Positions 23,886 to 42,977 of a DNA stretch of 64,000 nucleotides are shown in pieces. The translations under genes and the position numbers were made by a program. Under the pieces are notes generated by a model. That model was not told the DNA's origin. It saw only the letters and a program-made list of their open reading frames with translations, and did not search any database. This DNA comes from Candidatus Omnitrophota bacterium (GTDB lineage: Bacteria > Omnitrophota > Gorgyraeia > 2-01-FULL-45-10). Where the stretch lies: NCBI GenBank assembly GCA_903843285.1, contig CAIMPC010000007.1, positions 92,730-156,729 on the forward strand, in the 5' to 3' direction. Within the stretch, counting starts at the first letter, position 1, and the number at the start of each line of letters is the position of its first letter.

Positions 23886-23928
23886 CTTGCTTCCCGGCAA
23901 ATATTTGCAGTCAAAAGACATTATTATA

Positions 23929-23957
23929 TTGACAAAGTTATCGGCAGATAGTATTAT
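23929..23957 (+). promoter_or_regulatory. sigma70-like promoter: -35 TTGACA (23929-23934), 17-nt spacer, -10 TATTAT (23952-23957)
   Basis: Read directly from the sequence in the 108-bp gap upstream of the regulator gene. RBS AAGGA lies 7 nt before ATG 23994. Confidence 0.6.
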
Positions 23958-23979
23958 CGTTTAGAACGTTATAAACGAT
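23956..23979. promoter_or_regulatory. 24-bp palindrome ATCGTTTAGAACGTTATAAACGAT (putative operator), second copy
   Basis: Same half-sites (ATCGTTTA / TAAACGAT) and same position relative to the -10 as the copy at 992-1015. Confidence 0.55.
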
Positions 23980-23993
23980 AATAAGGATAAATT

Positions 23994-24488
23994 ATGCATA
24001 ATAAGCTTGAAATGGCACAAGATAAGTTTATGGAGGGCATAGGTAAGCTGGCGGAAAGTGTTGGCGTTAGCCGCTTTATCGCCCAGTTATACGCAGTTCT
24101 ATATCTAAGTGATAGGCCTTTATCCCTGGATGATCTAGTTGAACGTCTAAAAGCAAGCAAAGGCAATATAAGCCTCAATATAAGGGAGCTTGAAAAGTGG
24201 GGAGGCGTTAAGAACATTTGGGTTAAAGGCTCACGCAAGGACTATTATGAAGCGGACCCCGATATTAAGAAATTTGTTCTTAAGAAGATCAGGTCCGGGG
24301 TCCAGAAAAGGATAGGGCAGGTTACGGATATGATGGATGAGTTTAAAGAATTGATAAACTCCGGTAATGATGAAATGGGTGACGAAGATAAGATGATAGT
24401 AAAAACGTATCATGAAAAACTGAAGAATATTGAAAATATGAAGAGCCTGGCCGACAAAGCGCTTATGCTGGCCGATAAATTATTATAA
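23994..24488 (+). CDS. winged-helix transcriptional regulator, GbsR/COG1510 (MarR-like) family
   Basis: RFIAQLYAVLYLSDRPLSLDDLVERLKASKGNISLNIRELEKWGGV...WVKGSRKDYYEA matches the characteristic HTH and RKDYYEA block of COG1510 regulators. Confidence 0.55.
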   Translation: MHNKLEMAQDKFMEGIGKLAESVGVSRFIAQLYAVLYLSDRPLSLDDLVERLKASKGNISLNIRELEKWGGVKNIWVKGSRKDYYEADPDIKKFVLKKIRSGVQKRIGQVTDMMDEFKELINSGNDEMGDEDKMIVKTYHEKLKNIENMKSLADKALMLADKLL

Positions 24489-25556
24489 GTGCGTATGAAA
24501 AAGACGAGAAAAACATGTAAGCAGAATGAAATAAGAATAGGCAAGAGACAAGTCGGTGCCGCCTATCCTCCGCTAGTGATCGCCGAGATAGGCATTAATC
24601 ACGAGGGAGTATTCGAAAAGGCCGTCAAGATGATAGACGACGCTGCCAGGGTAGGGTGCGAGTGCGTTAAGTTCCAGTCTCATATTATTGATGATGAGAT
24701 GATCCCGAATCGGGTTATCCCGGCAAACGCGAAAGAATCGATATGGGAGATAATGGATCGTTGTGCCCTGTCGGAGAATGAAGAGGCCAAGCTGAAAGAA
24801 TATACCGAATCAAAAGGGATGATATTCTTAAGTACGCCTTTTTCCAGGGCCGCGGCAGAGAGATTGAAAAGGATCGGACTTGCTGCCTATAAGATAGGAT
24901 CTGGAGAGTGCAATAATTACCCGCTGGTCGAACACATATCCCGATATGGCAAACCGGTGATCCTTTCGACAGGAATGAATAATATTAAAAGCATAGGGAG
25001 ATCCGTAAGGATATTGAATGATGCCGATGTTCCGCTTGCTATCATGCACTGCACAAGTATGTACCCTACCCCTTACAATAAGATCCGTCTGGGAGCTATC
25101 GCCGAGCTTAAAGCTGCGTTCCCGATAGCGGTGGTGGGGCTATCCGATCACTCGCTATCTAACTATCCCTGTCTTGCGGCTGTGGCTCTAGGGGCTAGCC
25201 TTATTGAAAGGCATTTTACATCCGATAAGAGATGGCCTGGACCCGATATTCCAATTTCAATGGATCCGAAAGAGCTAAGGGAGCTTATCGAGGGCAGTAG
25301 GGCAATTCACGAAAGCCTTGGCGGGTCCAAGAATATACTGAAAGAGGAGCAGCCCACAATAGATTTTGCCTATGCCTGCGTAGTAGCTACGCGCGATATT
25401 GCGGCCGGGGAGCGTTTCAGCGCTGACAATATTTGGGTTAAACGGCCTGGCACCGGGCAGATAAAGGCAGAACACTATAACAGAGTTCTGAATAAGAGAG
25501 CCAGGTCAGAGATAAAGAAGAACGAGCAAATCGTGTGGAGCAAAATAGATGGCTAA
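24489..25556 (+). CDS. neuB: nonulosonic acid (sialic acid-like) synthase, NeuB/PseI/LegI family, with C-terminal SAF domain
   Basis: PPLVIAEIGINHEG...CVKFQ TIM-barrel N-terminus and C-terminal antifreeze-like domain (ATRDIAAGERF...WVKRPGTG). Family-level call only. Confidence 0.8.
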   Translation: MRMKKTRKTCKQNEIRIGKRQVGAAYPPLVIAEIGINHEGVFEKAVKMIDDAARVGCECVKFQSHIIDDEMIPNRVIPANAKESIWEIMDRCALSENEEAKLKEYTESKGMIFLSTPFSRAAAERLKRIGLAAYKIGSGECNNYPLVEHISRYGKPVILSTGMNNIKSIGRSVRILNDADVPLAIMHCTSMYPTPYNKIRLGAIAELKAAFPIAVVGLSDHSLSNYPCLAAVALGASLIERHFTSDKRWPGPDIPISMDPKELRELIEGSRAIHESLGGSKNILKEEQPTIDFAYACVVATRDIAAGERFSADNIWVKRPGTGQIKAEHYNRVLNKRARSEIKKNEQIVWSKIDG

Positions 25557-25602
25557 GCAGATACTATTTAAGTAGTCGGTTTATGTTGAAGGAGCTATAA
25601 AG

Positions 25603-27084
25603 ATGAGCATTAAAATTCTCTTAATATCCTGTGCCTGTCCCGAACCGTCATCCCCATCGCTGGGGGTTACGTCAATAGCGACCCATCTATTATCAAAAGG
25701 AATCGAGACCAGGGTGTTTGATGATGGGCCCTATATGTTGGATATTGCCGATGTGAAAACTGACCCTCGCGAGCTGATATTGTCTGTTCAAAAAACCGAT
25801 TCAATGCAGCTTTACCGGCTCGATTACGACAAACGATTTTCAGATCTACTTGCCATGGTGAAAGAGTTCAAGCCCGATCTGATAGGAGCGTCGTCGACTG
25901 AGGCTACATTTTATAACGCCATTGCCTATTTCAAAAAAATTAAAGAATGCCACCCTAATATTAAGACAATGCTTGGAGGCGCTTTTGCGATACTTGCGCC
26001 GGACATAGCGATCGCACAGGAAAGTGTGGATATGGTCGCGCTTGGCGAAGGAGAAACGATCCTTGAGGAGTATTGCATGCGCAGCGCATCCGACGATAAT
26101 CCTATCGATACAAAAGGCATATGGGCCAAGGATCCGGATGGCAAGATTCACAAAAATGCGATGTCAGAGCTGACTGCTATTGATAAGACTCCACCGCTTA
26201 AGTTTGATCTGTATCCTGCTAAGAGGCTCTTGCGCCCGATAAGCGGTGCAGTGAGGCGGATGCTTCCTCTTGAGGTAAGCCGCGGTTGCATGTATAACTG
26301 TACCTATTGCGGATCGTCGGGCATGGCTTCCAAGTTTAAGCTTCAAGGCAACTGGAACCGCTTTAAGAGCATAGAGAGCATAGAAGAGGCCATAGGGGCG
26401 TATGTGAAGCTCTATCGTCCGGAGTATTTCTTTGTTATCTCGGAAACATTTTTAGCGATGAAAGATGATTATTTTGACAGATTTATAAGGATGTACGGTA
26501 AATTTAAAGTACCGTTCTGGATGAATACCAGGCCCGAAACTATAAGTGAAGACAGGATAATGCGACTGAAGGAAGTAGGACTAGAGAGGGTAAGCGTCGG
26601 AGTAGAATGCGGGAATGAGTCATACCGGAGGGAACGTCTCAACCGTAAGCATTCGAACGCGCTTCTTATAAAAGTATTTGAGATTCTGAGAAAATATGAT
26701 CTCAAGACGTCGGCGAATGTGATGATCGGCCTTCCGGACGAAACGCGTGAGCTAATATTCGACTCGATTAGGTTAGTCAAGCTTCTCAAGGCTTCGGGCT
26801 TGGGATTAGCTATATACCAGCCATACAAAGGGACAGCTCTTTATAATCATGTTATTGAGAAAGGGTATTATGATCCTGCCAAGATAGCTGATACGACATG
26901 TTACACCCCTAGCATCTTCAATCCTAATTTATCAAACAAGGAAATAATGAAGTTTCTTTATATTTTTAATCTATACGTCAAGATGGATGAGGCGGAATGG
27001 CCCAAACTGGATAGTATCGATCTTGAGACAGAACGGGGATGGCCGCGACTAAAAGAATTGTTGGAGCAGTATGCTTCCTGTTGA
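25603..27084 (+). CDS. cobalamin-binding (class B) radical SAM protein
   Basis: B12-domain-like N-terminus. SRGCMYNCTYC radical SAM motif. Confidence 0.75.
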   Translation: MSIKILLISCACPEPSSPSLGVTSIATHLLSKGIETRVFDDGPYMLDIADVKTDPRELILSVQKTDSMQLYRLDYDKRFSDLLAMVKEFKPDLIGASSTEATFYNAIAYFKKIKECHPNIKTMLGGAFAILAPDIAIAQESVDMVALGEGETILEEYCMRSASDDNPIDTKGIWAKDPDGKIHKNAMSELTAIDKTPPLKFDLYPAKRLLRPISGAVRRMLPLEVSRGCMYNCTYCGSSGMASKFKLQGNWNRFKSIESIEEAIGAYVKLYRPEYFFVISETFLAMKDDYFDRFIRMYGKFKVPFWMNTRPETISEDRIMRLKEVGLERVSVGVECGNESYRRERLNRKHSNALLIKVFEILRKYDLKTSANVMIGLPDETRELIFDSIRLVKLLKASGLGLAIYQPYKGTALYNHVIEKGYYDPAKIADTTCYTPSIFNPNLSNKEIMKFLYIFNLYVKMDEAEWPKLDSIDLETERGWPRLKELLEQYASC

Positions 27085-27111
27085 ACTTAAAGAATTGACG
27101 GAGGTGTGTAG

Positions 27112-28236
27112 TTGATCAGGAGAATATTCTTCATAACGGGTACGAGGGCTGATTTTGGTAAGCTGAAACCGCTTATAAAAGCCATGCAGAACGATAAGGA
27201 GCTTGAGCCGTATATCTTTGTTACGGGGATGCACATGTATCCCAAGTACGGTTTTACGGGCGAAGAGGTTGCGGGGTGCGGTTTTAAAAATATCTTTAAC
27301 TATATAAACCAGAAGCCGAACGATAGCATGGACACTATCCTCGCTAACACTATCCTGGGTTTAAGCAATTACCTTGTAATTCAAAAGCCTGATATGGTCG
27401 TGATCCATGGCGACCGCGTCGAAGCGCTTGCGGGCGCTATAGTCGGCGCGCTTAATAATATCATAGTTGCGCATATAGAGGGCGGTGAGATCTCGGGTAC
27501 AATCGATGAGTCGATCCGTCACGCTGTATCTAAGCTGGCGCATCTCCACTTTGTATCCAATAACCAGGCGAAGAAGAGGCTTCTTCAGATGGGTGAGTCT
27601 GAGCGCAACATTTACGTTATCGGTTCACCGGATATAGATCTGATGTTATCACCCGACTTGATTAGCATATCGGAAGTAAAGAGACATTATGACATACCTT
27701 TCAAGCGGTACGCTATTCTTGCCTATCACCCGGTCACTACGAGCCTCCACGCGTTAATAAAGAACACACGTGAGCTTCTGAAGGCTGTGATTGATTCCGG
27801 GGAGAATTATGTGGTGATCTATCCGAATAATGATCCCGGAGCGGACATTATCTTGGAAGAGTATGCTATGCTCAAAAATAACAGTCAATTAAGGATATTT
27901 CCGTCTATCAGATTTGAGTATTTCCTTACGCTGTTGAAGAATTGTGAATTCATAATTGGAAATTCAAGCGCCGGAATACGGGAGGCACCATTCTATGCTG
28001 TGCCCACCATCAATGTCGGCAGCCGTCAGAAAGGGCGTTTTTCATACGAAACTATAATTGATGTTGACGACTCCGCCGAGGCCATACTTGCGGCCGTTGG
28101 AAGGGTTAAAAAGGTGAAGGGGGTCAGTTCCAATCATTTTGGTGACGGCAAAAGTAGCGAGAAGTTCTTAAAGGTTCTCCGTGAAGATCAAACGTGGAAT
28201 GTTACTATACAGAAGTTTTTTATGGACAGGGTCTAA
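27112..28236 (+). CDS. neuC: UDP-N-acetylglucosamine 2-epimerase (hydrolysing), NeuC family
   Basis: IFFITGTRADFGKLKPLI N-terminus and HIEGGEISGT motif typical of NeuC-type hydrolysing 2-epimerases. TTG start after a GGAGG RBS. Confidence 0.75.
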   Translation: MIRRIFFITGTRADFGKLKPLIKAMQNDKELEPYIFVTGMHMYPKYGFTGEEVAGCGFKNIFNYINQKPNDSMDTILANTILGLSNYLVIQKPDMVVIHGDRVEALAGAIVGALNNIIVAHIEGGEISGTIDESIRHAVSKLAHLHFVSNNQAKKRLLQMGESERNIYVIGSPDIDLMLSPDLISISEVKRHYDIPFKRYAILAYHPVTTSLHALIKNTRELLKAVIDSGENYVVIYPNNDPGADIILEEYAMLKNNSQLRIFPSIRFEYFLTLLKNCEFIIGNSSAGIREAPFYAVPTINVGSRQKGRFSYETIIDVDDSAEAILAAVGRVKKVKGVSSNHFGDGKSSEKFLKVLREDQTWNVTIQKFFMDRV

Positions 28237-28240
28237 AAAT

Positions 28241-29605
28241 ATGAAGAATATCTTCTCTGCGCCTACAGCAGTAAATCTGGAAATAACCGATGCGTGCAAC
28301 CTGAAGTGCCGCCATTGTTATAACTTCTGGAGGGAGGAAGGAAGCGCAACAGTATCGCTCTCCAGAGACCAGCTCGACGGATTATTGGATATTTTTGTGG
28401 AAGCGAAGGTCTTTCATGTCGTCTTCAGCGGTGGTGAACCGATGACTAGATTCGATATTCTAGAGTATGGGATAAAGAGGGCGTTATCTCTTGGCATGTC
28501 GGTCAGCTGCAATTCTAATCTTCTTCTCGCTACGGATGACAATCTGGCGCGTCTTTCAGACGCGGGCCTTGATCACATCCTGACAAGCCTGAATTCGTAC
28601 GATCGCGAAACTAACGATTATATGGTCAGGCTCGATGGTGCATTTGATAAGATCGTGAGCGGCATTGAAGCGGCCGTGTGTAACAGGATCAGAGTCAGCG
28701 TGAATATGATCGTGGCACAGAAGAATAGAAACCATGTTTATGAGACCGGTAGGCTCTGCCACAGATTGGGATGCCAGAAATTGTTCGGCACACGTACGGT
28801 GCCATCGATCAATCTGGAACATGCCGATGAGACTGAGTTCAGATTGATCAAAGAAGACGCCCGTCACACACTTGATCAGCTCGTCAGGGTAAAGAAGGAT
28901 ACTGGGATCATGATCGGTACGCTTGTCAGTTATCCGCTATGTCTGCTCGGCGATCTGGAAAAATACGCTGATTTTGTCGGGCGGGGTTGCCCGGCTCAGT
29001 CAGGGCATGTGATCAGTATCAATGCTAACGGAGAGACGCATGCATGCGTACATGAAGCTCAGGGGTACGGAAATGTCTTTGAGATAGGCATAAAACAGGC
29101 ATATCAGAACATGATCAAGTGGCATGATAAAAGTTACTATTACAAAGAGTGCGCAGGATGTGAATACATCCAAATATGTGAAACAGGATGCAGGTTATCG
29201 GCCCACGCGTATTTCGGGTCACTTGATGGAAAAGATCAACTGATGGAGGGTAAAGACAAGTTCATCGAGCCTTACAAGCTTGTGTACGACCCGTCTTTTT
29301 ATCAGAAAGTTAATCAGGGAGCGGTCTTTACCGTTCCCAGGCGTCTGCGATTCCGGAAAGAAGATGGTTATTATCTTGTCAATATAAGATGGGCCAATAC
29401 GATCACTTGCCCCACTGACGTGGCCGAATTATTGATCAAATATCAAGCATCGGGACTGGGATTCGGTATCGATGATATAGGCGTAAATAATCGTGAGATA
29501 TTGGCCAGATTGTTTTTTAAGGATGCCATAGAATGCAGTGAGCTTAAATATAATGATTTGAGGCACAAGGCCGGATTGAGCGATAGTATTATCGATCGTG
29601 TATGA
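28241..29605 (+). CDS. radical SAM/SPASM domain protein (anSME-like architecture)
   Basis: CNLKCRHC radical SAM motif. C-terminal CAGCEYIQICETGC (CxxCx5CxxxC) SPASM motif. An alternative upstream start at 28181 overlaps neuC. Confidence 0.7.
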   Translation: MKNIFSAPTAVNLEITDACNLKCRHCYNFWREEGSATVSLSRDQLDGLLDIFVEAKVFHVVFSGGEPMTRFDILEYGIKRALSLGMSVSCNSNLLLATDDNLARLSDAGLDHILTSLNSYDRETNDYMVRLDGAFDKIVSGIEAAVCNRIRVSVNMIVAQKNRNHVYETGRLCHRLGCQKLFGTRTVPSINLEHADETEFRLIKEDARHTLDQLVRVKKDTGIMIGTLVSYPLCLLGDLEKYADFVGRGCPAQSGHVISINANGETHACVHEAQGYGNVFEIGIKQAYQNMIKWHDKSYYYKECAGCEYIQICETGCRLSAHAYFGSLDGKDQLMEGKDKFIEPYKLVYDPSFYQKVNQGAVFTVPRRLRFRKEDGYYLVNIRWANTITCPTDVAELLIKYQASGLGFGIDDIGVNNREILARLFFKDAIECSELKYNDLRHKAGLSDSIIDRV

Positions 29606-29665
29606 TCACGATCTATGTAATTTGCCTGGCAGGGTAAACCATAATCAAAGGAGCGTGAAATTGTC

Positions 29666-30322
29666 ATGCAGATAGATATTTCAAAAGCGTTTGACTATGA
29701 AAATGGTTTTTATCTGGCCTCCCAGCAGCAACGGATAGGTAAGTTTGCCGCCCATCTGGAGCTTTTCAGGAAAGTATCCGATGTAGCGGGTGAAATAGTT
29801 GAATGCGGCGTATATAAGGGCGCGTCGTTATCCAGGTTCATAAAGTTTAGAGCCGTATTTGAAAATCCTTTTAGCAAGAAGATAATCGCCTTTGACACGT
29901 TTGGCGCATTTCCAGAGGCGCATTATGAACCTGATAAAGCGAAGAGAGATCAATTCATAGAAGAAGGCGGCCCCAACAGCATATCCAAGGAGGAGCTTGC
30001 CGATATTTTAAAGAAGCTGGATCTTTATGAAAACATCGAGCTGATAGAGGGGGATGTGCTCCTGACGATCGATGAATATAAGAAAAAAAATAAGCAGCTC
30101 AAGATATCCCTTCTGCATATTGACGTAGATCTTTATGAAGCGACGAAGGCCTGCCTTGAAGGTCTTTATCCGATGATGACAAAAGGCGGTATAGTGATAT
30201 TGGATGATTACAATAAGTTTGCCGGTGCGACCAAGGCAATAGATGAGTATTTCTCAGGCAGGAGCATTCGAATACAGAAACTACCGTATTCGGGCGCGGT
30301 TTCGTTCATAGAGATCCGGTGA
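29666..30322 (+). CDS. TylF/MycF-family (macrocin O-methyltransferase-like) sugar O-methyltransferase
   Basis: GVYKGASL...LLHIDVDLYEATKACLEGLYPMMTKGGIVILDDY matches the TylF-family class I methyltransferase fold. Confidence 0.7.
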   Translation: MQIDISKAFDYENGFYLASQQQRIGKFAAHLELFRKVSDVAGEIVECGVYKGASLSRFIKFRAVFENPFSKKIIAFDTFGAFPEAHYEPDKAKRDQFIEEGGPNSISKEELADILKKLDLYENIELIEGDVLLTIDEYKKKNKQLKISLLHIDVDLYEATKACLEGLYPMMTKGGIVILDDYNKFAGATKAIDEYFSGRSIRIQKLPYSGAVSFIEIR

Positions 30323-30325
30323 TTT

Positions 30326-31552
30326 ATGGGATCCAGCCAGACCAGCAACAGATATAGCGTAAAGTGGGGGCTTCCGGAAGAGGTTCAGTTTTGCAAGAAA
30401 TGCGTTATGTCGAATCAGGTGCCCTCAGCTGTCATAGAAACAAGACATAAGAATACGGATAAGAAGCCAACTCTTACTTTTGATGAAGACGGTATCTGCC
30501 ACGCGTGCCGCTGGGCAGAGATGAAAGACTCAATAAACTGGTCTGAACGGGAAAAGGAGTTGCAGGATCTCCTGGATATGCATCGAAGGAACGATGGGCA
30601 TTATGATGTTATTGTGCCATCGAGCGGGGGGAAGGATAGCTCATTTGCTGCGCATATGCTTAAGCATAAGTATGGAATGCATCCGTTGACGGTTACGTGG
30701 GCACCGCATATCTACACTGAGATCGGTTGGCAAAATTTTCAGAACCTTATACATGCCGGATTCGATAATGTTCTTATAACGCCGAACGGAAGAGTTCATC
30801 GCACCCTCACTAAACTGGCCTTTAAGAACCTGGTGCATCCATTTCAGCCGTTTATAATCGGACAGAAAAATGTAGCGCCGAGGCTGTCTATCGAGAAGAG
30901 CGTCAGTCTGATCATATATGGGGAGAATCCCGCCGAGGCAAATTCAACGGTCGGAAATAATTCTTCGCCGATCATGGACCGTGAACACTATGCTATCTCG
31001 CAGGAAGACTTAAAGGATGTGCGCCTGGGGGGTGTCAGCTTACAGGAGCTTGAGTCATATGGCATAAGCAGGGCTGATCTGAATCTATATCTTCCGGTTG
31101 ATATTCAGAGAGTGGTTGAAAACAGGACAGAGGCTCATTATTTGAGCTATTATGTTAAGTGGGATCCGCAGGCAAATTTTTACTATGCCGCGGAGAATGT
31201 GGGGTTTAAAGTGAATCCCGAGCGGACCGAAGGGACGTATTCAAAATATGCGAGCCTGGACGATAAGATAGATGGGTTTCATTACTTCACTACTTATATT
31301 AAATTTGGTCTGGGCCGGGCTTCGTATGATGCGTCTCAGGAGATCCGACGCGGCCATATCACAAGAGAAGAGGGAGTGGCTCTGGTCAAAAAATATGACG
31401 GTGAGTTTCCCAGGAAGTATTTTAAAGATTTTCTGGAATATATGGATATACCAGAGGATGGTTTTTGGAAAATAATAGATGGTGCGCGCTCAGAGCATCT
31501 ATGGCGCAGCATGGATGACGGAACGTGGCAACTTAGACACCAGGTGCAATAA
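30326..31552 (+). CDS. N-acetyl sugar amidotransferase (PP-loop ATPase; WbuX/PseA-like)
   Basis: PP-loop VPSSGGKDSS. Family is normally paired with HisH/HisF-like WbuY/WbuZ, which are present at 33704-35277. Confidence 0.7.
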   Translation: MGSSQTSNRYSVKWGLPEEVQFCKKCVMSNQVPSAVIETRHKNTDKKPTLTFDEDGICHACRWAEMKDSINWSEREKELQDLLDMHRRNDGHYDVIVPSSGGKDSSFAAHMLKHKYGMHPLTVTWAPHIYTEIGWQNFQNLIHAGFDNVLITPNGRVHRTLTKLAFKNLVHPFQPFIIGQKNVAPRLSIEKSVSLIIYGENPAEANSTVGNNSSPIMDREHYAISQEDLKDVRLGGVSLQELESYGISRADLNLYLPVDIQRVVENRTEAHYLSYYVKWDPQANFYYAAENVGFKVNPERTEGTYSKYASLDDKIDGFHYFTTYIKFGLGRASYDASQEIRRGHITREEGVALVKKYDGEFPRKYFKDFLEYMDIPEDGFWKIIDGARSEHLWRSMDDGTWQLRHQVQ

Positions 31553-31574
31553 TACCAAAAAGGCCTTCACGACA

Positions 31575-32279
31575 ATGTATAAAGACAAGAAGATATTGGC
31601 TATAGTTCCGGCTAGAGGAGGATCTAAGGGTCTCCCGGGAAAGAATATAATGGAGATCTTTGGCAAACCCGCTATCGCCTGGACCATAGAGAGCGCGCTT
31701 AAGAGCGCGTTTCTTGATAAGACTATTGTCACTACTGATGATCAAGAAATAGCCGATATAGCGCGTAAATATGGCGCAGTCATACCTTTTATCAGGCCAA
31801 AAGAGCTGGCAGGCGATAAGACTCCTATGATAGATGTTATTCTTCATGCGTTAGATTTCTTTAAAAAATGCGGTGAGGCATATGACATCATGGTCCTGTT
31901 ACAGCCGACATCGCCGCTTCGAAAGGCCGAAGACATAGATGGATCAATAAAAGCCATGTTCGAGAAGGGTGCAGGTTCGGTTATTTCTGTATGCGAAACA
32001 GAACATCCGCCGTATTGGTCCAATACACTCCCTCCCGATGGGTGTATGAAGGACTTTGTCCGAAAAGATATTATGAACAAGAACAGGCAGGAGCTGCCTA
32101 AGTTCTACAGGCTTAACGGAGCTATATATGCCTCCGATGTTGAATATTTATATAAGTTGAACTGTTTTTTTGGAGAGAAAACATTTGCATATGTAATGCC
32201 GTTTGAACGCTCCGTAGACATAGACCACAAGACGGATATGCTGCTATCGGAGATCTTACTGAGGGCGCAAAATGGCTAA
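31575..32279 (+). CDS. neuA: acylneuraminate cytidylyltransferase (CMP-nonulosonate synthetase, NeuA family)
   Basis: KKILAIVPARGGSKGLPGKNI N-terminal signature. Start set at ATG 31575 (the ORF-track start at 31479 overlaps the upstream gene). Confidence 0.75.
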   Translation: MYKDKKILAIVPARGGSKGLPGKNIMEIFGKPAIAWTIESALKSAFLDKTIVTTDDQEIADIARKYGAVIPFIRPKELAGDKTPMIDVILHALDFFKKCGEAYDIMVLLQPTSPLRKAEDIDGSIKAMFEKGAGSVISVCETEHPPYWSNTLPPDGCMKDFVRKDIMNKNRQELPKFYRLNGAIYASDVEYLYKLNCFFGEKTFAYVMPFERSVDIDHKTDMLLSEILLRAQNG

Positions 32280-33693
32280 AAGGCCACGGGTTCTATTCAT
32301 CATACATGACCTCTATCAGGAAGATAACCATTTCCCATTAGGTCCGGCGTATCTGGCTGCCATAATGAGGCGCAATGGTGTTGATGTCGAGATATATTGC
32401 CAGGATGTATTCCATTACTCAAGCGATGAATTGGCTCGCTACCTGGATAGAAATGAGTTTGACGTGATCGGCGTCGGTTTCTTGGCGGCCAGGTTCGCCG
32501 AGACAATAGACCCGCTTTGTAAAGTGATCAATCATCATAAAAAAGGAGCTTGGCTTGTATTGGGCGGGCCAGGCCCTTCTCCCATACCCGACTATATGCT
32601 TAAGACGACAGGTGCCGATATTGTAGTTATGGGTGAGGCTGAAGACACTATGATGGAGCTGATCAGCGGTAAGATCGCAAATGCCGGCTTATCCGGGATA
32701 AAAGGTATAGCCTACATGGATGGCGTCGAAGCCAGGATAAATGAGAGACGTAACCCCGTAAAAGATCTCGACTTGATACCCTTCCCCGAATGGTCGTTAT
32801 TTCCCATGGAAAAGTATATCAGGTGCCTAAAGCCATTCAGGGCGAATGAGAAGGACGTGGTATTTGGTATGGTTACAAGCCGCGGTTGCGTCAACCGGTG
32901 TAACTTTTGCTATCGTATGGAAGACGGTATTCGCACTCGGAGCGTAAAGAATGTGGTCGAAGAGATAGAGTACCTATACAAGACCTATGCGGTAAATTAT
33001 TTTGTAATGTACGATGAGCTATTCGTTTTTTCCAAGAAAAGAATACGTGATTTCAAGAACGCGCTGACTGAGCGGGGATTGAAGATAAAATTCTCATGTA
33101 ATGCCAGGGTGGATCTTTTTGACGAGGAACTGGCCGGGCTTCTGAAAGATTGCGGATGTCAGTTCCTGAACCTGGGGATGGAGTCTTCGGATCAGACAGT
33201 CCTGGATGCTATGAAGAAGCGGACCACTGTAGAGCAGAACATAAAAGCTGCGGAGATAACCAAGAAGGCCGAGATAGGGCTCGGATTGAATTTTATATGG
33301 GGGAATATAGGCGATACCGAGGAATCTCTTAAAAACAACGTGATGCTAATCAAAAAATATAATACATATGACCAGCTGCGGACGATAAGACCTGTCACGC
33401 CTTATCCTGGATGCGATCTTTATTACGAGGCTATAAAGAGAAATAAGCTCAAAGACGCCGAAGATTTTTTCCGGAAATTCAGCAATTCCGATCTTCTCAC
33501 CGTAAATTTTACGGATATTCCCGATGACATATATTGCTCCGCACTTTTCGAAGCGAACAAGTATCTTATAACCGACCATTATGAAAATACTACAGGAGAT
33601 ATGGCAGCGGCTTCAAAGATGATAAAGGATTTTCAGGACCTCTACCTGGGCAAGAATATAAAATTCAGAGGCGCCCGCCATTACATAAAGTGA
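32272..33693 (+). CDS. cobalamin-binding (class B) radical SAM protein
   Basis: B12-domain motif LGGPGPS. SRGCVNRCNFC radical SAM motif. Confidence 0.75.
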   Translation: MAKRPRVLFIIHDLYQEDNHFPLGPAYLAAIMRRNGVDVEIYCQDVFHYSSDELARYLDRNEFDVIGVGFLAARFAETIDPLCKVINHHKKGAWLVLGGPGPSPIPDYMLKTTGADIVVMGEAEDTMMELISGKIANAGLSGIKGIAYMDGVEARINERRNPVKDLDLIPFPEWSLFPMEKYIRCLKPFRANEKDVVFGMVTSRGCVNRCNFCYRMEDGIRTRSVKNVVEEIEYLYKTYAVNYFVMYDELFVFSKKRIRDFKNALTERGLKIKFSCNARVDLFDEELAGLLKDCGCQFLNLGMESSDQTVLDAMKKRTTVEQNIKAAEITKKAEIGLGLNFIWGNIGDTEESLKNNVMLIKKYNTYDQLRTIRPVTPYPGCDLYYEAIKRNKLKDAEDFFRKFSNSDLLTVNFTDIPDDIYCSALFEANKYLITDHYENTTGDMAAASKMIKDFQDLYLGKNIKFRGARHYIK

Positions 33694-33703
33694 TCATAAG
33701 TCC

Positions 33704-34618
33704 ATGTGTAAGAATATTCGCATAATACCCAGGCTTGATATAAAAGGGGAAAATCTCGTTAAGGGTATTCATCTGGAAGGGCTGCGCGTCCTTGGCAAGC
33801 CAGAGGACTTTGCTTATGAGTACTGCGCCGGAGGAGCGGATGAATTACTCTACATCGATATCGTGGCAAGCCTTTACGGCAGGAATAATCTTATCGATAT
33901 AGTTCGCCGCACGGCCGCGAATATATTTATCCCACTAACGGTAGGTGGAGGGATAAGATCTGTAGACGATATAAGGATGATGTTGCGCGCCGGCGCGGAT
34001 AAGGTCGCGATAAATACTGCAGTCGTAAAAAGACCGGAGTTTATTAGCGAGGCAGCTAACGCATTCGGTTCCCAGTGTATCGTCCTTTCGATTGAAGCAA
34101 AGCGTACCGGAGACGGAACTTATGAAGCGTATACCGATAACGGCAGAGAGCGAACGGGCCTCGATATCTTTAAATGGGCGCTTAGGGGAGCGGAACTCGG
34201 CGCAGGTGAGATCCTTATCACTTCTATCGATAATGAAGGCACCGGTAAGGGGTTTGATATCGATCTAATAAGAAAGATGTCGGCTATTGTGGATATCCCG
34301 GTGATCTCCTGCGGTGGCGCGGGTAAAATGGGTGATTTTGAAGACGCGGTTGTGAGCGGAAGTGCTGATGCGATATCGGCCGCTTCGGTATTCCATTACC
34401 ATCTAGTCAAGACACAGTCGGTGCCGCAAAAATTTAATTTAAAGAGCAATCTGGATCATCTTGCGAAGAGCCTTTCGAGTGATGGTGCCAGTTTTGGCGC
34501 GATAGAGACATTCAGCGTCAAGGGCCTGAAGTCATATTTGGTCGGGAAAGGGCTGCCGATCCGTCCGGTGATGAGCGCTCATATACTGATAGAGCCTAAT
34601 GCCGAGAATATTTTATGA
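33704..34618 (+). CDS. imidazole glycerol phosphate synthase cyclase subunit HisF-like (WbuZ-like)
   Basis: RIIPRLDIKGENLVKG...VGGGIRS HisF signature. Sits in a sugar cluster next to a HisH-like gene. Confidence 0.8.
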   Translation: MCKNIRIIPRLDIKGENLVKGIHLEGLRVLGKPEDFAYEYCAGGADELLYIDIVASLYGRNNLIDIVRRTAANIFIPLTVGGGIRSVDDIRMMLRAGADKVAINTAVVKRPEFISEAANAFGSQCIVLSIEAKRTGDGTYEAYTDNGRERTGLDIFKWALRGAELGAGEILITSIDNEGTGKGFDIDLIRKMSAIVDIPVISCGGAGKMGDFEDAVVSGSADAISAASVFHYHLVKTQSVPQKFNLKSNLDHLAKSLSSDGASFGAIETFSVKGLKSYLVGKGLPIRPVMSAHILIEPNAENIL

Positions 34619-35277
34619 CACATCGCATCGTGATCGTAGATTATGGAGCCGGAAACCTTTATAGCATAGAGCGGGCATTGGATTTCATAGGCGTTCAAGC
34701 CGAAGTGGTAAGCACTCCGGAAAAGATAGCTGGTGCCGAACGCATAATTTTGCCGGGAGTCGGCGCTTTCAAGAACGGTATGCGAGGATTGTCTGAACGT
34801 GGCCTGGTAGGTCCGCTGCAGGAATATGTCAGGTCGGGCCGACCATTGCTCGGCATCTGTCTGGGCATGCAGCTACTGATGAGTGAAAGTGAGGAATTTG
34901 GCAGATACGATGGACTCAACATGGTCAAGGGCAAGGTAGTCCGGTTAGACCCAGCGCTTCCAGGCAAGGAGCGATTCAAGGTTCCGCATGTAGGATGGAG
35001 CAGGGTAATACGGAGGGAAAGCAGTTGTGCGGAGATGCCGGATGGGTGGACGGAGGGCGTTCTTAAGAGCCTCCCCAATGGTTTCTTTGCATATTTTGCC
35101 CACTCATTTGTGGTTGTGCCCGAAGATGGCTCGGCCTGTATAGCTCAGACAAAGTATGGTGGAGCGACATTTTGCTCTTGCCTGCAGCAGAATAATTTAT
35201 ACGGCTGCCAGTTCCATCCGGAGCGTAGCGGCATAGAAGGTTTGGAGATCTATAGGGACTTTGTCCGGAGAAATTAG
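34615..35277 (+). CDS. glutamine amidotransferase HisH-like (WbuY-like)
   Basis: IVIVDYGAGNLYSIERAL...LPGVGAF class I GATase signature. Confidence 0.8.
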   Translation: MTHRIVIVDYGAGNLYSIERALDFIGVQAEVVSTPEKIAGAERIILPGVGAFKNGMRGLSERGLVGPLQEYVRSGRPLLGICLGMQLLMSESEEFGRYDGLNMVKGKVVRLDPALPGKERFKVPHVGWSRVIRRESSCAEMPDGWTEGVLKSLPNGFFAYFAHSFVVVPEDGSACIAQTKYGGATFCSCLQQNNLYGCQFHPERSGIEGLEIYRDFVRRN

Positions 35278-36445
35278 CTTTATGGGAAGAATAAAAAAAA
35301 TTGTGTTTCTCATAGAGTCTTGCTACAACAAACGAGACCACGAGCGTTTCGGTATCGATATACTGATTAGGAACGGCTTCGATGTTGAAGTCTGGGATTT
35401 TACGTCGATCTTAGCTTCATCCAAATTCGGCAAAGTAAGACCTCCAGATCCGATAAAATGGAATAAATGGACTCTCTTCGAAACCAAAAAACAGGCTGTA
35501 GACGCTCTCCTGAGTTTGGACCGGTCGGTATATATTGTTTCGCTGGTCCGTTGTTATAGTAAGACGTTTTATCTGTATAAGGCCATTAAAAATAAAATGA
35601 CGCCTTATTGCGTACTGGGTGACAGTACGCCAAAAAGCTCGAGGCAGGAAGAAGCGGTCGTGAAGCAGATTAAGAACTTCACTTTTAGAAAACTGCTTCG
35701 TAAGATCACTGAGATCAAACCATTGAAATATTATTCGGTAATGGCGCCGGATATTATAATGGCCATGGGAGAGAGATATTTTGCGAATACTTACCCGGTG
35801 AGGAAAGAGACTGAGGTGGTCTGGTCGCATAGTTTCGACTACGATATCTATATGAAGATGAAAGGCTCTGCCGGTATAGCTAACCCTAAAGTTTGGGTTT
35901 TCTTAGACGTCTATTTCCCATTTCATCCGGATTTCATTAATTACGGGCTATCATTGAATGCCGATCCCGATGAATACCATTTGTCGCTTCGCCGATTTTT
36001 TGATCATATTCAGAGCGCATTTGGTGTTAGGAGCATAATTGCAGCGCACCCGCGTTCACATTATGAAAAACACGGTGATTGTTTTGGCGGCCGGGAGATC
36101 GTACGTGGCAGGACAGCGCAGCTGGTGAGGGAAAGCGATCTTGTAATCATGCATAATTCTCTCGCAATTAATTATGCCGTCCTTTTTAAAAAGCCTATCA
36201 TCTTCGTTACTACGAATCAGTATAACGCCAGTCAGGTTTATGAGGAGCCTTCAGTGAAATGGCTTGCCGGCTATTTCGGAAAAAGAGTGCATAATCTCGA
36301 TGACCCTATTAATGTAAAGCTGGAGGAAGAGATGAAAGTTAATGAGCCGGCGTACAGCAAATACAGGAACGATCACATAAAAAAAGAGGGTTCGGCAGAA
36401 TTACCATTCTGGCAGATCCTGGCCGATAGGCTTAAGCTAAAGTAG
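35261..36445 (+). CDS. putative CMP-sugar (nonulosonate/Kdo) glycosyltransferase, sialyltransferase/KpsC-KpsS-like GT-B with HP motif
   Basis: AAHPRS (HP motif), then about 28 aa later LVIMHNSLAINYAVLFKKPIIFV, resembling the C-terminal nucleotide-binding half of capsule Kdo transferases and bacterial sialyltransferases. Tentative. Confidence 0.35.
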   Translation: MSGEISFMGRIKKIVFLIESCYNKRDHERFGIDILIRNGFDVEVWDFTSILASSKFGKVRPPDPIKWNKWTLFETKKQAVDALLSLDRSVYIVSLVRCYSKTFYLYKAIKNKMTPYCVLGDSTPKSSRQEEAVVKQIKNFTFRKLLRKITEIKPLKYYSVMAPDIIMAMGERYFANTYPVRKETEVVWSHSFDYDIYMKMKGSAGIANPKVWVFLDVYFPFHPDFINYGLSLNADPDEYHLSLRRFFDHIQSAFGVRSIIAAHPRSHYEKHGDCFGGREIVRGRTAQLVRESDLVIMHNSLAINYAVLFKKPIIFVTTNQYNASQVYEEPSVKWLAGYFGKRVHNLDDPINVKLEEEMKVNEPAYSKYRNDHIKKEGSAELPFWQILADRLKLK

Positions 36446-36475: not shown

Positions 36476-37339
36476 ATGAAAAAATGTTATTTGTGCGGTG
36501 CGAGCAAGATCGACTGTGTGGTCGGAAAAGTTCGGGATTTGCCTGATATACCGATCCTGAGATGTAAGGAGTGTGGCCTGGTATTTCTTGCGAATTTCGA
36601 TCACATAGACGATCGATTTTACGAAGAGTCGATGATGAGGGATAGATCGCCGATCGCTAACTGGAAGCTGTATTTAAAAGACTGTGCCAATGATGATGCG
36701 CGGCGCTCCCGGTGGATAAGGCCGGTGGCTACCAGCAAGTCTCTCCTTGATCTTGGCTGTGGCGCAGGCGGGTTCCTGTCGCGAGCCAAGAGGTTTACAA
36801 AAAAATGCGCGGGAGTCGAAAAAGACGACAGTTTAAGACGAGCGATACAAAGGCACTTTAGTATCAGGACTTACCCCGATATTGCAGAAGTCGATGAAAA
36901 ATTCGATATTATAACTCTGTTCCATGTGCTGGAGCACTTTAAGGATCCTAAGGGTGTCTTGATTGGCCTGGCCAAATTATTAAATAAGAACGGAAAGATC
37001 ATCATAGAAGTGCCGAATTCAAATGATGCGTTATTATCCTTGTATAAGAGCAAGGCTTTCTCAGAATTTACTTTCTGGAAATGCCACCTTTATCTGTTCA
37101 ATGATTCAAACTTACGGAGGCTGCTCCGTAAGGCCGGTTTACATGTAAACTCCATTGTGCAGATCCAAAGATATCCTCTTTCCAATCATCTTTACTGGCT
37201 TTCTAAGGGCAAGCCGGGCGGGCATAAGATATGGAATTTTATGGACGATAAAGAATTGACTCGTAAATATGAATGTCAGTTGGCTAAGATCGATGCTTGT
37301 GACACATTAATGGCAGTGGTGAGTAAATCAAGTAGATGA
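36476..37339 (+). CDS. class I SAM-dependent methyltransferase with N-terminal Cys4 zinc-ribbon
   Basis: CYLCGAS...CKECG zinc ribbon. LLDLGCGAGGFL motif I. Confidence 0.65.
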   Translation: MKKCYLCGASKIDCVVGKVRDLPDIPILRCKECGLVFLANFDHIDDRFYEESMMRDRSPIANWKLYLKDCANDDARRSRWIRPVATSKSLLDLGCGAGGFLSRAKRFTKKCAGVEKDDSLRRAIQRHFSIRTYPDIAEVDEKFDIITLFHVLEHFKDPKGVLIGLAKLLNKNGKIIIEVPNSNDALLSLYKSKAFSEFTFWKCHLYLFNDSNLRRLLRKAGLHVNSIVQIQRYPLSNHLYWLSKGKPGGHKIWNFMDDKELTRKYECQLAKIDACDTLMAVVSKSSR

Positions 37340-37357
37340 AATGAAAGGACAGTAACT

Positions 37358-38788: not shown

Positions 38789-38832
38789 ATAATTAAAGAG
38801 ATGCTTTCGCAAAGCACGAAAGGAGAGGTAGT

Positions 38833-39684: not shown

Positions 39685-39719
39685 TCAGTTATAAGACCTA
39701 TAACAGTCAGGATGACCTT

Positions 39720-40460: not shown

Positions 40461-40462
40461 GC

Positions 40463-41848: not shown

Positions 41849-41854
41849 AAATAT

Positions 41855-42283: not shown

Positions 42284-42307
42284 AATATTTTTTAAAGAGG
42301 GAATAGA

Positions 42308-42973: not shown

Positions 42974-42977
42974 TTCG

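Follow-up and report, generated by a model that had tools for sequence, protein, structure and literature searches.

A recurrent cassette of nonulosonate, radical SAM and TylF-type methyltransferase genes in a Candidatus Omnitrophota genome points to a putative tailored acetamidino sugar

Genes predicted to make an acetamidino nonulosonic acid are interleaved with radical SAM and TylF-type methyltransferase genes in the 64-kb window of Candidatus Omnitrophota DNA analyzed here (64,000 nucleotides of contig CAIMPC010000007.1). This interleaving is not accidental, given that a SPASM-type radical SAM gene co-occurs with NeuB, CMP-transferase and TylF genes, each in most of 37 loci, and with none of them in 11 outgroup loci, and it is a new result. 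We consider it reasonably probable that the product of this cassette (module 1) is a nonulosonic acid that is activated with CMP, carries a 5-acetamidino group and has been O-methylated and modified by radical SAM enzymes, its backbone most probably being of the Neu5Ac type.

A sequence-only reading had described ten genes in the order NeuB with SAF domain, B12-binding radical SAM, NeuC, SPASM radical SAM, TylF, WbuX, NeuA, a second B12-binding radical SAM, HisF-like and HisH-like. The arrangement, with all ten genes on the forward strand, is borne out apart from small start-codon corrections made by gene callers on identical metagenome contigs, which begin NeuB at 24495 (instead of 24489), the SPASM gene at 28241 (instead of 28181) and NeuA at 31515 or 31575 (instead of 31479). 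The family matches have E-values from 1e-19 to 1e-125, so that chance is excluded. On the same strand, a MarR-like winged-helix regulator (23994..24488; weak MarR_2 match, CudC-like at 68 bits) follows the sole intergenic gap of any size and is probably where the transcription unit begins; from there on, neighboring genes overlap or lie no more than 60 bp apart. A sigma-70-like site, TTGACA-17-TATTAT (11/12), the best in the region, lies at 23929-23957, and a small HTH gene is likewise present in the related Planctomycetia cluster L086. The unit runs past 35277, and a conserved gene for a GT-B-fold protein starts 4 bp further on.

The motifs of WbuX and its resemblance to a Legionella pneumophila amidotransferase give good support for the formation of an acetamidino nonulosonic acid. 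WbuX, a putative PP-loop N-acetyl sugar amidotransferase (NASAT; 30326..31552; TIGR03573, 355 bits, cutoff 203), has the SGGKDS PP-loop at residue 100 and a zinc tetracysteine (Cys23, 26, 58 and 61), as these motifs are defined in PMC10607449, and shares 56.6% identity with the L. pneumophila O-antigen NASAT 8WEX across 396 residues. The HisF-like (WbuZ-type) ammonia-channel subunit (33704..34618) falls just under the cutoffs of both the HisF (280 bits) and WbuZ (275 bits) models. Compared with Thermotoga maritima HisF, it retains D11 as well as R5, E46, K99 and E167 of the gate, has D130 replaced by E, and bears a C-terminal extension of about 70 amino acids. The HisH-like glutaminase subunit (34615..35277; TIGR01855, 187 bits, cutoff 105) has its triad, with Cys in GICLGMQ and His-x-Glu in FHPERS. 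The earlier recognition of these three proteins as a system that converts an N-acetyl to an acetamidino group is thus upheld. WbuX occurs in 9 of 11 NeuB1-type loci and in none of 18 NeuB2-type loci, which, together with the likeness to 8WEX, makes a nonulosonic acid the most likely substrate. In L. pneumophila, the ORF28/PtmG homologue is described as an enzyme that converts CMP-Leg5Ac7Ac to CMP-Leg5Am7Ac (PMC3766260), and putative CMP-Neu5Am and O-methylated CMP-nonulosonic acids were seen by mass spectrometry (bioRxiv 10.64898/2026.04.20.719630).

Sequence comparisons suggest that the backbone is most probably of the Neu5Ac (neuraminic acid) type, contrary to the legionaminic or pseudaminic type first proposed. 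NeuB1 (24495..25556; PF03102, 250 bits; SAF domain PF08666, 51 bits) reaches 371 bits with the NeuB equivalog TIGR03569, missing its cutoff of 400, and 228 bits with the PseI model, far below threshold. By identity it groups with canonical Neu5Ac enzymes: it is 56% identical to the Neu5Ac synthase of Neisseria meningitidis, of which it keeps 17 of 18 checked active-site positions (including F288 and R314), and 72-73% identical to NeuB of plain NeuB-NeuC-NeuA sets, found on their own in a flagellar locus of Brevibacillus and in Geomonas. Identity is 35% to a LegI identified by synteny (LegB-LegC-LegG-LegI-PtmE order), in which F288 is Ile; the choice between Neu and Leg rests on this one LegI and on the plain NeuBCA contexts. 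The NeuC-type hydrolysing UDP-sugar 2-epimerase (27112..28236; TIGR03568, 417 bits, cutoff 236) is 56-60% identical to NeuC of the plain sets and 29% identical to LegG in a canonical Leg context. The closest solved relatives of the NeuA-type CMP-nonulosonate synthetase (31575..32279; CTP_transf_3, PF02348, 91 bits) are the CMP-Neu5Ac synthetases 6ifd (154 bits) and 1eyr (129 bits), and its best NCBIfam match is PseF (170 bits, below the cutoff of 206). Homologues of LegB, LegC, LegH, PseB, PseC and PseH, proposed earlier as a check, are not recognizable at family threshold in the 64-kb window.

By analogy with Legionella, it is possible, if rather unlikely, that NeuC, NeuB1 and NeuA instead use UDP-N,N'-diacetylbacillosamine supplied by genes in another part of the genome, and that the resulting Leg5Am7Ac is then methylated and radical-SAM-modified. 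The sequence-only reading had given a legionaminic version of this kind. The closeness of WbuX to the NASAT of a Leg5Am7Ac O-antigen is consistent with it, as is the best score of NeuC among solved structures, which is to Acinetobacter baumannii LegG (5xvs, 207 bits, slightly above human GNE at 184 bits). In the L. pneumophila serogroup 1 LPS locus, NeuC, NeuB and NeuA are ORF23-25, the NASAT/PtmG homologue is ORF28 and an N-methyltransferase is ORF8, with the precursor genes outside the locus (PMC3766260). There, as here, the trio has a PP-loop N-acetyl sugar amidotransferase as its neighbor, and methylation of the sugar comes afterwards, as is predicted here. However, N-methylation in L. pneumophila is by a PtmH-type enzyme, and a radical SAM or TylF-type enzyme of the LPS locus is not mentioned in PMC3766260 or PMC10607449. 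Its product is legionaminic acid, whereas NeuB1 and NeuC resemble those of stand-alone Neu5Ac-type trios. A gene resembling those of 4,6-dehydratases (18600) and one for a DegT protein (20365) do lie 4-6 kb upstream of module 1, but the former scores 118 bits as LegB (cutoff 475) and the latter 208 bits as LegC (cutoff 420), with its best match to RfbH (273 bits). Neither hexapeptide nor GNAT acetyltransferases were detected among approximately 60 ORFs, and related cassettes (L087, L031 and L010) are likewise without such genes within 10 kb.

The tailoring genes are tied to the nonulosonate genes by their recurrence across bacteria. Among 37 independent loci, scored for neighbors within 10 kb of an orthologue of the SPASM gene, NeuB is present in 31, a CMP-transferase in 29, TylF in 21 and a B12-binding radical SAM in 18; NeuB, CMP-transferase and TylF are each found in 0 of the 11 outgroup loci. 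NeuC accompanies 10 of the 11 NeuB1-type loci. The full set of NeuB, NeuC, SPASM, TylF, WbuX, HisF, HisH and NeuA, often with a B12-binding radical SAM, is found in Campylobacterota, Alphaproteobacteria, Planctomycetota and Myxococcota. Locus L087 is compact, with the order NeuB-NeuC-SPASM-TylF-WbuX-HisF-HisH-NeuA, and the same nine families are present, in a changed order, in L006; further carriers are L008/L086, L031, L043, L059, L020 and L049. In Maridesulfovibrio the SPASM gene is found with TylF, NeuB being absent within 10 kb, and Maridesulfovibrio aside, it has neither NeuB nor TylF in 5 of 36 loci.

The SPASM protein (28241..29605) belongs to a highly conserved family that has no name and is encoded alongside NeuB and CMP-transferase genes, with homologues at 50-73% identity in many phyla. 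It has the CX3CX2C motif, and the family alignment gives the full seven-cysteine SPASM pattern (C250-X13-G-X4-C269 and C304-X2-C-X5-C-X3-C317), despite which the Pfam SPASM model stays below threshold. No NCBIfam model comes close to its cutoff. A C-terminal extension of about 120 amino acids is conserved. The AlphaFold model (pLDDT 87) is anSME-like, with anSME, BlsE, SkfB, SuiB and PqqE as the best PDB matches; the closest folds are those of anSME, a dehydrogenase, and BlsE, a sugar-nucleoside decarboxylase.

In the 21 loci that have both, the median distance between the SPASM gene and that of the TylF-family protein (29666..30322; PF05711, 74 bits) is 234 bp. Enzymes of the TylF family methylate oxygen, and CalS11, a TDP-rhamnose 3'-O-methyltransferase, is the nearest relative with a solved structure (82 bits), with the D-x-D-L-Y-E segment conserved. 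We therefore expect O-methylation, probably of a nucleotide-activated sugar, rather than the C- or N-methylation suggested before, whereas the proposed tie of the methyltransferase to the sugar holds. Modification of the sugar had also been assigned to all three radical SAM proteins. Synteny conserved across phyla places SPASM, TylF and the second B12-binding protein, B12b (32272..33693; B12-binding, 59 bits, and Radical_SAM domains; CX3CX2C at residue 206), with the sugar pathway. By sequence, B12b is part of the recurrent cassette: its orthologues adjoin NeuB1-type genes at 52% identity in L049, 42% in L091 and 38-40% in L006, L031 and L047, and that of the Planctomycetia MAG in L008 is 70% identical within the same NeuA-B12-HisF-HisH order. 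Its best solved relative is the core of AprD4 (62 bits), a dehydratase, and B12-binding radical SAM enzymes also catalyze reactions other than methylation. The assignment does not extend to B12a (25603..27084; B12-binding and Radical_SAM domains; CX3CX2C at residue 229), which has no orthologue in related cassettes and no locus match above 30% identity; it is lineage-specific, and its role in the nonulosonate pathway is therefore unproven.

It is improbable that the radical SAM and TylF genes merely sit among the nonulosonate genes and tailor other sugars of the island, leaving module 1 to make a plain 5-acetamidino nonulosonic acid. The island does contain several other sugar modules, eight mutually distant B12 radical SAM proteins and many methyltransferases, and the B12a and Maridesulfovibrio cases fit such a reading, as do the Brevibacillus orthologues of NeuB1 that work without radical SAM or TylF genes. 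Yet the association of SPASM with NeuB and CMP-transferase persists across phyla while gene order is shuffled, the NeuA-B12b-HisF-HisH order is kept in the Planctomycetia MAG, and, apart from SPASM, TylF and the amidotransferase triad, L087 holds only nonulosonic acid genes. Amidation of another N-acetyl sugar of the island (FucNAc- or ManNAc3NAcA-type, as in Escherichia coli O145 and Pseudomonas aeruginosa O5) is very unlikely: the family was defined on hexosamine substrates (WbuX, WbpG; PMC10607449), L006 has a second HisH/HisF pair adjoining WbpB/WbpE/WbpD-like genes and acetimidoyl UDP-HexNAc was detected in the SugarBase preprint, but WbuX accompanies NeuB1-type synthases, the characterized enzyme closest to it is that of Legionella, which serves a polylegionaminic O-antigen, and no second amino-sugar pathway lies near L087.

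In the Neu5Ac-type scenario that we favor, NeuC would convert UDP-GlcNAc to ManNAc by hydrolysis and epimerization, NeuB1 would condense ManNAc with PEP, and NeuA would form the CMP-sugar. WbuX, using ATP through its PP-loop, would then convert the 5-N-acetyl to an acetamidino group with ammonia released by the HisH glutaminase and channeled by the HisF-like subunit, at the level of the CMP-sugar as reported for PtmG. Family assignments, motifs and conserved synteny underlie these four predicted steps, and pathway association underlies the next three. A hydroxyl of the nucleotide sugar would be O-methylated by the TylF-type enzyme. The SPASM protein may take a hydrogen from the ulosonate, with the electron leaving via auxiliary clusters, in an oxidation or epimerization probably at the C3-C4 part common to all NeuB products, and B12b may place a methyl group onto an unactivated carbon. 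We infer in what order the steps occur, their regiochemistry and the kinds of reaction that both radical SAM enzymes catalyze. The sugar could be passed from its finished CMP form to the acceptor by the GT-B-fold protein (35282..36445), a candidate transferase whose gene lies beyond those first described. This protein lacks any match in Pfam or NCBIfam, its approximately 195 homologues are all named 'hypothetical', and its AlphaFold model (pLDDT 89) matches GT1 glycosyltransferases and UDP-GlcNAc 2-epimerases (TM 0.45-0.53). Two related cassettes, L031 and L047, encode homologues of it.

From the perspective of known systems, the plain Neu5Ac pathway (N. meningitidis, E. coli K1 and the Maf-linked Brevibacillus trio L090, whose NeuB is 73% identical to NeuB1) has the same three initial steps, without the six tailoring genes intercalated here: the amidotransferase triad, TylF, SPASM and the B12 radical SAMs. 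The ptm/leg flagellin glycosylation locus of Campylobacter jejuni (LegB, C, H, G, I and F with PtmG and PtmH) is a surface glycan island, as here, but has dedicated dehydratase, aminotransferase and acetyltransferase genes, and the LegI/LegG type, as judged by the synteny-identified Leg cluster L007, shares only about 30-35% identity with NeuB1 and NeuC. We know of no radical SAM step in the C. jejuni locus. Enzymes of antibiotic sugars (BtrN, AprD4, GenK, DesII and BlsE; CalS11) belong to the same superfamilies, and their substrates are sugars or nucleotide sugars. The likenesses (SPASM model to anSME, BlsE and DesII; B12b core to AprD4; TylF to CalS11) are all at superfamily level: the fold matches have 15-22% identity, and scores stay below the family cutoffs. 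To our knowledge, none of the sugar-tailoring radical SAM enzymes, nor CalS11, acts on a 2-keto-3-deoxy nonulosonic acid. In the literature searched, no report connects radical SAM enzymes with nonulosonic acids, and the cassette points to a sugar-tailoring chemistry that this literature has yet to describe.

The window is a single long co-directional island for glycan biosynthesis, in which all ORFs of at least 130 aa with a domain match lie on the + strand. The ten genes that the sequence-only reading had placed here, in the order NeuB (with a SAF domain), a cobalamin-binding radical SAM protein (B12a), NeuC, a SPASM-type radical SAM protein, a TylF-family methyltransferase, the amidotransferase WbuX, the CMP-transferase NeuA, a second cobalamin-binding radical SAM protein (B12b), and HisF-like and HisH-like proteins, were all found in that order, with E-values of 1e-19 to 1e-125 in domain and family-model searches. 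Within this module (module 1), the genes overlap or are at most 60 bp apart. At least 19 metagenome contigs, of up to 189 kb, carry identical copies of the cluster, and gene calls on these contigs supplied the corrected start codons; that of the first gene, NeuB1, is at 24495 rather than at the GTG chosen earlier. The sole sizeable gap (23886-23993) precedes a MarR-like gene that starts at 23994, and the region's best sigma-70-like site lies in this gap. No tRNA genes were found in the window, and thus nothing points to an integration site.

The main new result is support for the conclusion that the SPASM radical SAM and TylF genes belong to the nonulosonate pathway. The SPASM protein (28241-29605, + strand) was recognized from its cysteine pattern and fold, and no curated family model comes near its cutoff on it. 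Homologues of ~450 aa with 50-73% identity are numerous in Campylobacterales, Desulfobacteraceae, Maridesulfovibrio, Nitrospina, Brocadiaceae and other groups. The family combines a CX3CX2C motif, the full seven-cysteine SPASM pattern and a conserved C-terminal extension of ~120 aa (the invariant cysteines are C19, 23, 26, 234, 250, 269, 304, 307, 313 and 317), and PF13186 is recorded for some homologues only. A profile search of 1.84 billion representative sequences recovered 689 clusters of this family at E <=1e-30, and the best match among GTDB representatives (67%) is from a Planctomycetia MAG. A homologue (P0076, 52% identical) is also recorded in a transcriptome of the anaerobic protist Anaeramoba flamelloides, which could reflect a bacterial symbiont or gene transfer.

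A scan of one genome per species gave 78 SPASM loci, which were then searched with the proteins of the window. In 37 non-redundant loci, the SPASM orthologue reaches 36% identity or more and is flanked by 5 kb or more on either side. A NeuB-family gene is present in 31 of these loci, a CTP_transf_3 gene in 29, a TylF gene in 21 (median distance 234 bp) and a B12 radical SAM gene in 18. NeuB, CMP-transferase and TylF genes are found in none of the 11 loci with distant relatives only (28-34% identity, mostly from CPR bacteria). One exception to the association is Maridesulfovibrio hydrothermalis (L005, 9304-11356), in which TylF and SPASM genes are adjacent and neither NeuB nor a CMP-transferase lies within 10 kb.

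The SPASM gene, which occurs in SAR11, Prochlorococcus, Nitrospinota, Brocadiaceae, Magnetospirillum and others, partners three NeuB architectures. Loci with a synthase like NeuB1, that is, with a SAF domain, include NeuC in 10 of 11 cases and WbuX in nine. In the closest relative (L087, 73%), the genes run NeuB-NeuC-SPASM-TylF-WbuX-HisF-HisH-NeuA with no other sugar-related gene in between, and a Campylobacterales MAG has the same nine families in a changed order. NeuC and WbuX are absent from all 18 loci with SAF-less synthases (NeuB2-type), including those of SAR11 and Prochlorococcus single-cell genomes; such loci, for example L088 and the Brocadiaceae locus L089, form a minimal SPASM/TylF/CMP-transferase/NeuB set. 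The third partner is a NeuB-SAF-xylose-isomerase-like fusion in a Magnetospirillum MAG and in Azospirillum. At these loci (L033, 11531-14323, in the Magnetospirillum MAG; L021, 14772-17798, in Azospirillum tabaci) the SPASM gene adjoins a fusion of 930-1008 aa in which an N-terminal region (including a CBS domain in Azospirillum) is joined to NeuB, SAF and a TIM barrel resembling xylose isomerase. In L087 (1-21383), sulfate-activation genes (for PAPS reductase-like, CysN-like and APS kinase proteins) precede the nonulosonic acid genes and a sulfotransferase gene follows them, a possible sign that the sugar is sulfated there.

By fold, the SPASM enzyme (AlphaFold model, pLDDT 87) most resembles anSME, BlsE, SkfB, SuiB and PqqE, followed by viperins and DesII. 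Given that the Foldseek matches (at best anSME 4k37, TM 0.57/0.69) and profile matches are at the superfamily level only, the type of reaction cannot be read from the structure. Radical SAM enzymes that withdraw an electron from a substrate radical typically have two auxiliary clusters, and for this reason we infer an oxidation or an epimerisation. Because the SPASM protein accompanies three types of synthase with different precursor genes, it would most simply act on the part that NeuB products have in common (the PEP-derived C1-C3 and the new C4 carbinol) or on the CMP-ulosonate itself.

The earlier suggestion that the radical SAM proteins and the methyltransferase tailor the sugar is supported by conserved co-occurrence in the case of SPASM, TylF and B12b; B12a, of which no orthologue above 30% identity was found in the related loci, may or may not take part. 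Both B12a (25603-27084, + strand) and B12b (32272-33693, + strand) match PF02310 and PF04055, with CX3CX2C at residues 229 and 206, respectively. Neither could be placed in a characterised methylase subfamily (GenK, Fom3, PhpK, HpnR and others), as all NCBIfam matches are far below their cutoffs (at best BchE with 139 of 481 bits and PhpK with 114 of 600). A Planctomycetia MAG keeps the order NeuA-B12b-HisF-HisH with a B12b that is 70% identical, and further orthologues (38-52%) flank NeuB1-type genes in four related loci (L049, L091, L031 and the Campylobacterales locus L006) and a NeuB2-type gene in an Omnitrophota MAG (L047). Most simply, B12b would be a C-methylase, but its best solved match is the dehydratase core of AprD4 and no subfamily cutoff is reached. 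Eight B12-binding radical SAM genes lie between 7188 and 59609 in the 64-kb window (starting at 7188, 12301, 25603, 32272, 37358, 47596, 54824 and 58167). All eight have CX3CX2C and their mutual identity is 22-36%, so they are not recent duplicates.

The TylF-family protein (29666-30322, + strand; PF05711, 74 bits against a cutoff of 23) has CalS11 as its nearest solved relative (82 bits, with 38 for NovP and 23 for MycF). CalS11 O-methylates TDP-rhamnose before glycosyl transfer. An acidic D-x-D-L-Y-E segment, which we take from studies of NovP and MycF to be metal-binding, is conserved (DVDLYE in TylF aligned to DLDLYE in CalS11). Given this segment and the proximity to CalS11, we favour O-methylation of the CMP-sugar, and the C- or N-methylation proposed before probably does not apply to TylF. 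CMP-nonulosonic acids with O-methyl groups have been detected by mass spectrometry (bioRxiv 10.64898/2026.04.20.719630).

Four base pairs after the HisH-like gene is a gene (35282-36445, + strand) for a protein with a predicted GT-B fold and no family annotation, whose ~195 homologues are all named hypothetical. Since homologues recur in L031 and in the Omnitrophota locus L047, we list it as a candidate transferase.

The NASAT family is defined by a PP-loop SGGXDS and a zinc-binding tetracysteine motif, CXXC...[GN]XCXXC (PMC10607449). WbuX (30326-31552, + strand; TIGR03573, 355 bits against a cutoff of 203) has SGGKDS at residue 100 and keeps the tetracysteine as C23-K-K-C26 and G-I-C58-H-A-C61. 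The only solved relative is 8WEX of L. pneumophila, with 499 bits and 56.6% identity over 396 residues. The adjacent HisH-type glutaminase (34615-35277, + strand) scores 187 bits against a cutoff of 105 and has the Cys-His-Glu triad. In our own comparison with T. maritima HisF, the HisF-like protein (33704-34618, + strand) keeps D11 and the ammonia-gate residues, has Glu in place of D130 and carries a C-terminal tail of 70 aa; it falls just below the cutoff of the WbuZ model (275 of 300 bits) and narrowly misses that of HisF as well. The assignment of these three genes to an acetamidino system, made in the sequence-only reading, holds on the WbuX motifs, the identity to 8WEX and the HisH triad, and a conversion of N-acetyl to acetamidino by WbuX, HisH and HisF is thus a supported prediction. 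The Legionella ORF28/PtmG homologue is described as converting CMP-Leg5Ac7Ac to CMP-Leg5Am7Ac (PMC3766260).

Amidation of an N-glycan by an archaeal AglX/Y/Z system was considered for the same three genes and rejected, given that the AglZ model scores lower (202 bits against a cutoff of 310) and that the neighbours are of bacterial type (GT9, MBOAT and an ABC transporter with fused membrane and ATPase domains). That they are true histidine-biosynthesis hisF and hisH genes was rejected on genomic context, the D130E change and the C-terminal extension.

For the sugar that carries the acetamidino group, we favour a neuraminic backbone, and so a Neu5Am derivative, given the resemblances of NeuB1, NeuC and NeuA, the plain NeuBCA contexts of their relatives and the lack of Leg or Pse precursor genes in the window. 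NeuB1 (24495-25556, + strand; Pfam NeuB and SAF domains) scores 418 bits against N. meningitidis NeuB, to which it is 56% identical in a MAFFT alignment, vs 144 bits against a solved PseI. At 17 of 18 checked substrate and metal positions of the meningococcal active site the residue is identical, including F288 and R314 of the SAF domain; the one difference is Ser at N184. The LegI of a Nitrospinota MAG (L007), assigned by context alone from the order LegB-LegC-LegG-LegI-PtmE-like, is 35% identical to both of these synthases and has Ile where they have F288. NeuB1 belongs to a large family (68-75% identity) whose members include the NeuB of a flagellar locus in Brevibacillus borstelensis (flagellin-Maf-NeuB-NeuC-NeuA), with no dehydratase, aminotransferase or acetyltransferase gene in its NeuB-NeuC-NeuA locus, and a synthase in Geomonas in the order NeuA-NeuB-NeuC. 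NeuC (27112-28236, + strand), which scores 417 bits against a cutoff of 236 on TIGR03568, a model that covers NeuC and LegG alike, is 56-60% identical to the NeuCs of Brevibacillus and Geomonas vs 29% to the LegG of L007. The best solved relatives of NeuA (31575-32279, + strand; CTP_transf_3, PF02348, 91 bits against a cutoff of 23) are CMP-Neu5Ac synthetases.

The legionaminic/pseudaminic-type backbone predicted before is therefore probably wrong, since these three enzymes resemble Neu5Ac-type enzymes and the Leg and Pse models stay below their cutoffs in the window. A grouping of NeuB and NeuA with canonical Neu5Ac enzymes, named in advance as evidence against that prediction, is seen in part: the identity to meningococcal NeuB and the nearest relatives of NeuA agree with it, and the NeuB equivalog model TIGR03569 is missed (371 vs 399.65 bits). 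Close homologues of NeuB1 are labelled by PGAP just as N-acetylneuraminate synthase family protein and the best 120 carry this generic name or a spurious PhaR, so database names do not decide between Neu and Leg. A plasmid tblastn search for annotated LegI or NeuB references returned generic names alone, and PMC8208679 gives no residues that discriminate LegI from NeuB.

A legionaminic backbone is the main alternative. In L. pneumophila, legionaminic acid is made with a NeuC/NeuB/NeuA set while the bacillosamine genes are elsewhere in the genome (PMC3766260), which is a real caveat to the neuraminic assignment. The search for Leg and Pse precursor genes proposed earlier, run within the window, gave no LegB, LegC, LegH, PseB or PseC above cutoff. 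The best candidates for LegB and LegC (TIGR04180 and TIGR04181) score 118 of 475 bits (18600-19610) and 208 of 420 bits (20365-21603). These are the only dehydratase-like and DegT genes of the window, are far below the LegB, LegC, PseB and PseC cutoffs, and lie in a separate module with a GHMP kinase and an NDP-transferase. In none of the scanned ORFs of the window was a hexapeptide or GNAT domain found, as would be expected of a LegH-type N-acetyltransferase. For a pseudaminic backbone, all models are below cutoff in the window (PseI 228 of 340, PseB 20 of 408, PseC 226 of 424 and PseF 170 of 206 bits). A Neu5Am-type product, the one we favour, is chemically plausible because a putative CMP-Neu5Am peak has been reported in C. 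jejuni (2026 preprint, bioRxiv 10.64898/2026.04.20.719630).

A second module of the window (36476-43778) encodes a methyltransferase, a B12 radical SAM protein (B12c), a SAF-less NeuB2, a second CMP-transferase, a class-III aminotransferase, a glyoxalase-fold protein, another methyltransferase and a short SPASM radical SAM protein. Its NeuB2 has 283 aa and E134M, F112W and T110S relative to N. meningitidis NeuB, and the Omnitrophota locus L047 mirrors the module (NeuB2 59%, aminotransferase 48% and TylF 64% identity). Between 49119 and 52312, a 587-aa fusion of an HMGL-like (pyruvate aldolase-type) TIM barrel and a weak MptE-like/Maf domain is followed by the third CTP_transf_3 gene of the window and a HAD phosphatase gene; together they may make a third CMP-activated 2-keto-3-deoxy acid without the use of NeuB. 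Two unannotated proteins with 9-10 predicted membrane helices and a soluble C-terminal domain (21615-23885, 756 aa, in a low-GC stretch of 38%; and 9279-11060, 593 aa) are candidate GT-C-type glycosyltransferases or polymerases. Another candidate transferase is a soluble 662-aa protein (43795-45783) without a Pfam match, which has weak homologues (23-36%) in L087, L031, L047 and L051. A transketolase-like pair at 3992-5312 is split; its second ORF (4761-5312) has just 183 aa and no Transketolase_C, and may be truncated, with a counterpart of 306 aa in the Brocadiaceae locus L089.

The core of NeuC, NeuB and NeuA with a NASAT, HisH and HisF is of a known kind, with the L. pneumophila LPS locus and the C. 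jejuni ptm locus as the nearest described analogues. Module 1 differs from both in the addition of conserved radical SAM enzymes and a TylF-type methyltransferase. To our knowledge, known nonulosonic acid pathways use conventional enzymes only (dehydratases, aminotransferases, acyltransferases and SAM-dependent O- and N-methyltransferases), and full-text literature searches found no paper that links radical SAM enzymes to nonulosonic acids. Mass-spectrometry surveys have left modified nonulosonic acids unexplained, including C10 CMP-ulosonic acids in M. gryphiswaldense without assigned genes, and the SPASM gene beside the NeuB fusion in the Magnetospirillum MAG is a suggestive link to these. 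A bolder reading, which we put forward tentatively and hold to be on balance unlikely, is that the 450-aa SPASM protein performs a previously unrecognized and widespread step in ulosonic acid synthesis, a backbone change made by no known pathway, and that with the B12 radical SAM proteins this could include chain-extending or branching C-methylation, which would explain the Magnetospirillum gryphiswaldense compounds.

In pathogens and in abundant environmental bacteria, surface glycans are capped by nonulosonic acids, which determine the charge of the surface, its susceptibility to phages and its recognition by the immune system. Since one radical SAM family accompanies NeuB and CMP-transferase genes in a dozen phyla, the most abundant marine bacteria among them, we predict a new class of modified sugars that resemble sialic acid. 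The SPASM cassette is a concrete gene set for expression and assay and a route to new sugar chemistry, and it supplies candidate genes for the modified and higher-carbon ulosonic acids detected by mass spectrometry. If the backbone is neuraminic, module 1 would be a genetic basis for 5-acetamidino-neuraminic acid, so far only a putative CMP-sugar peak.
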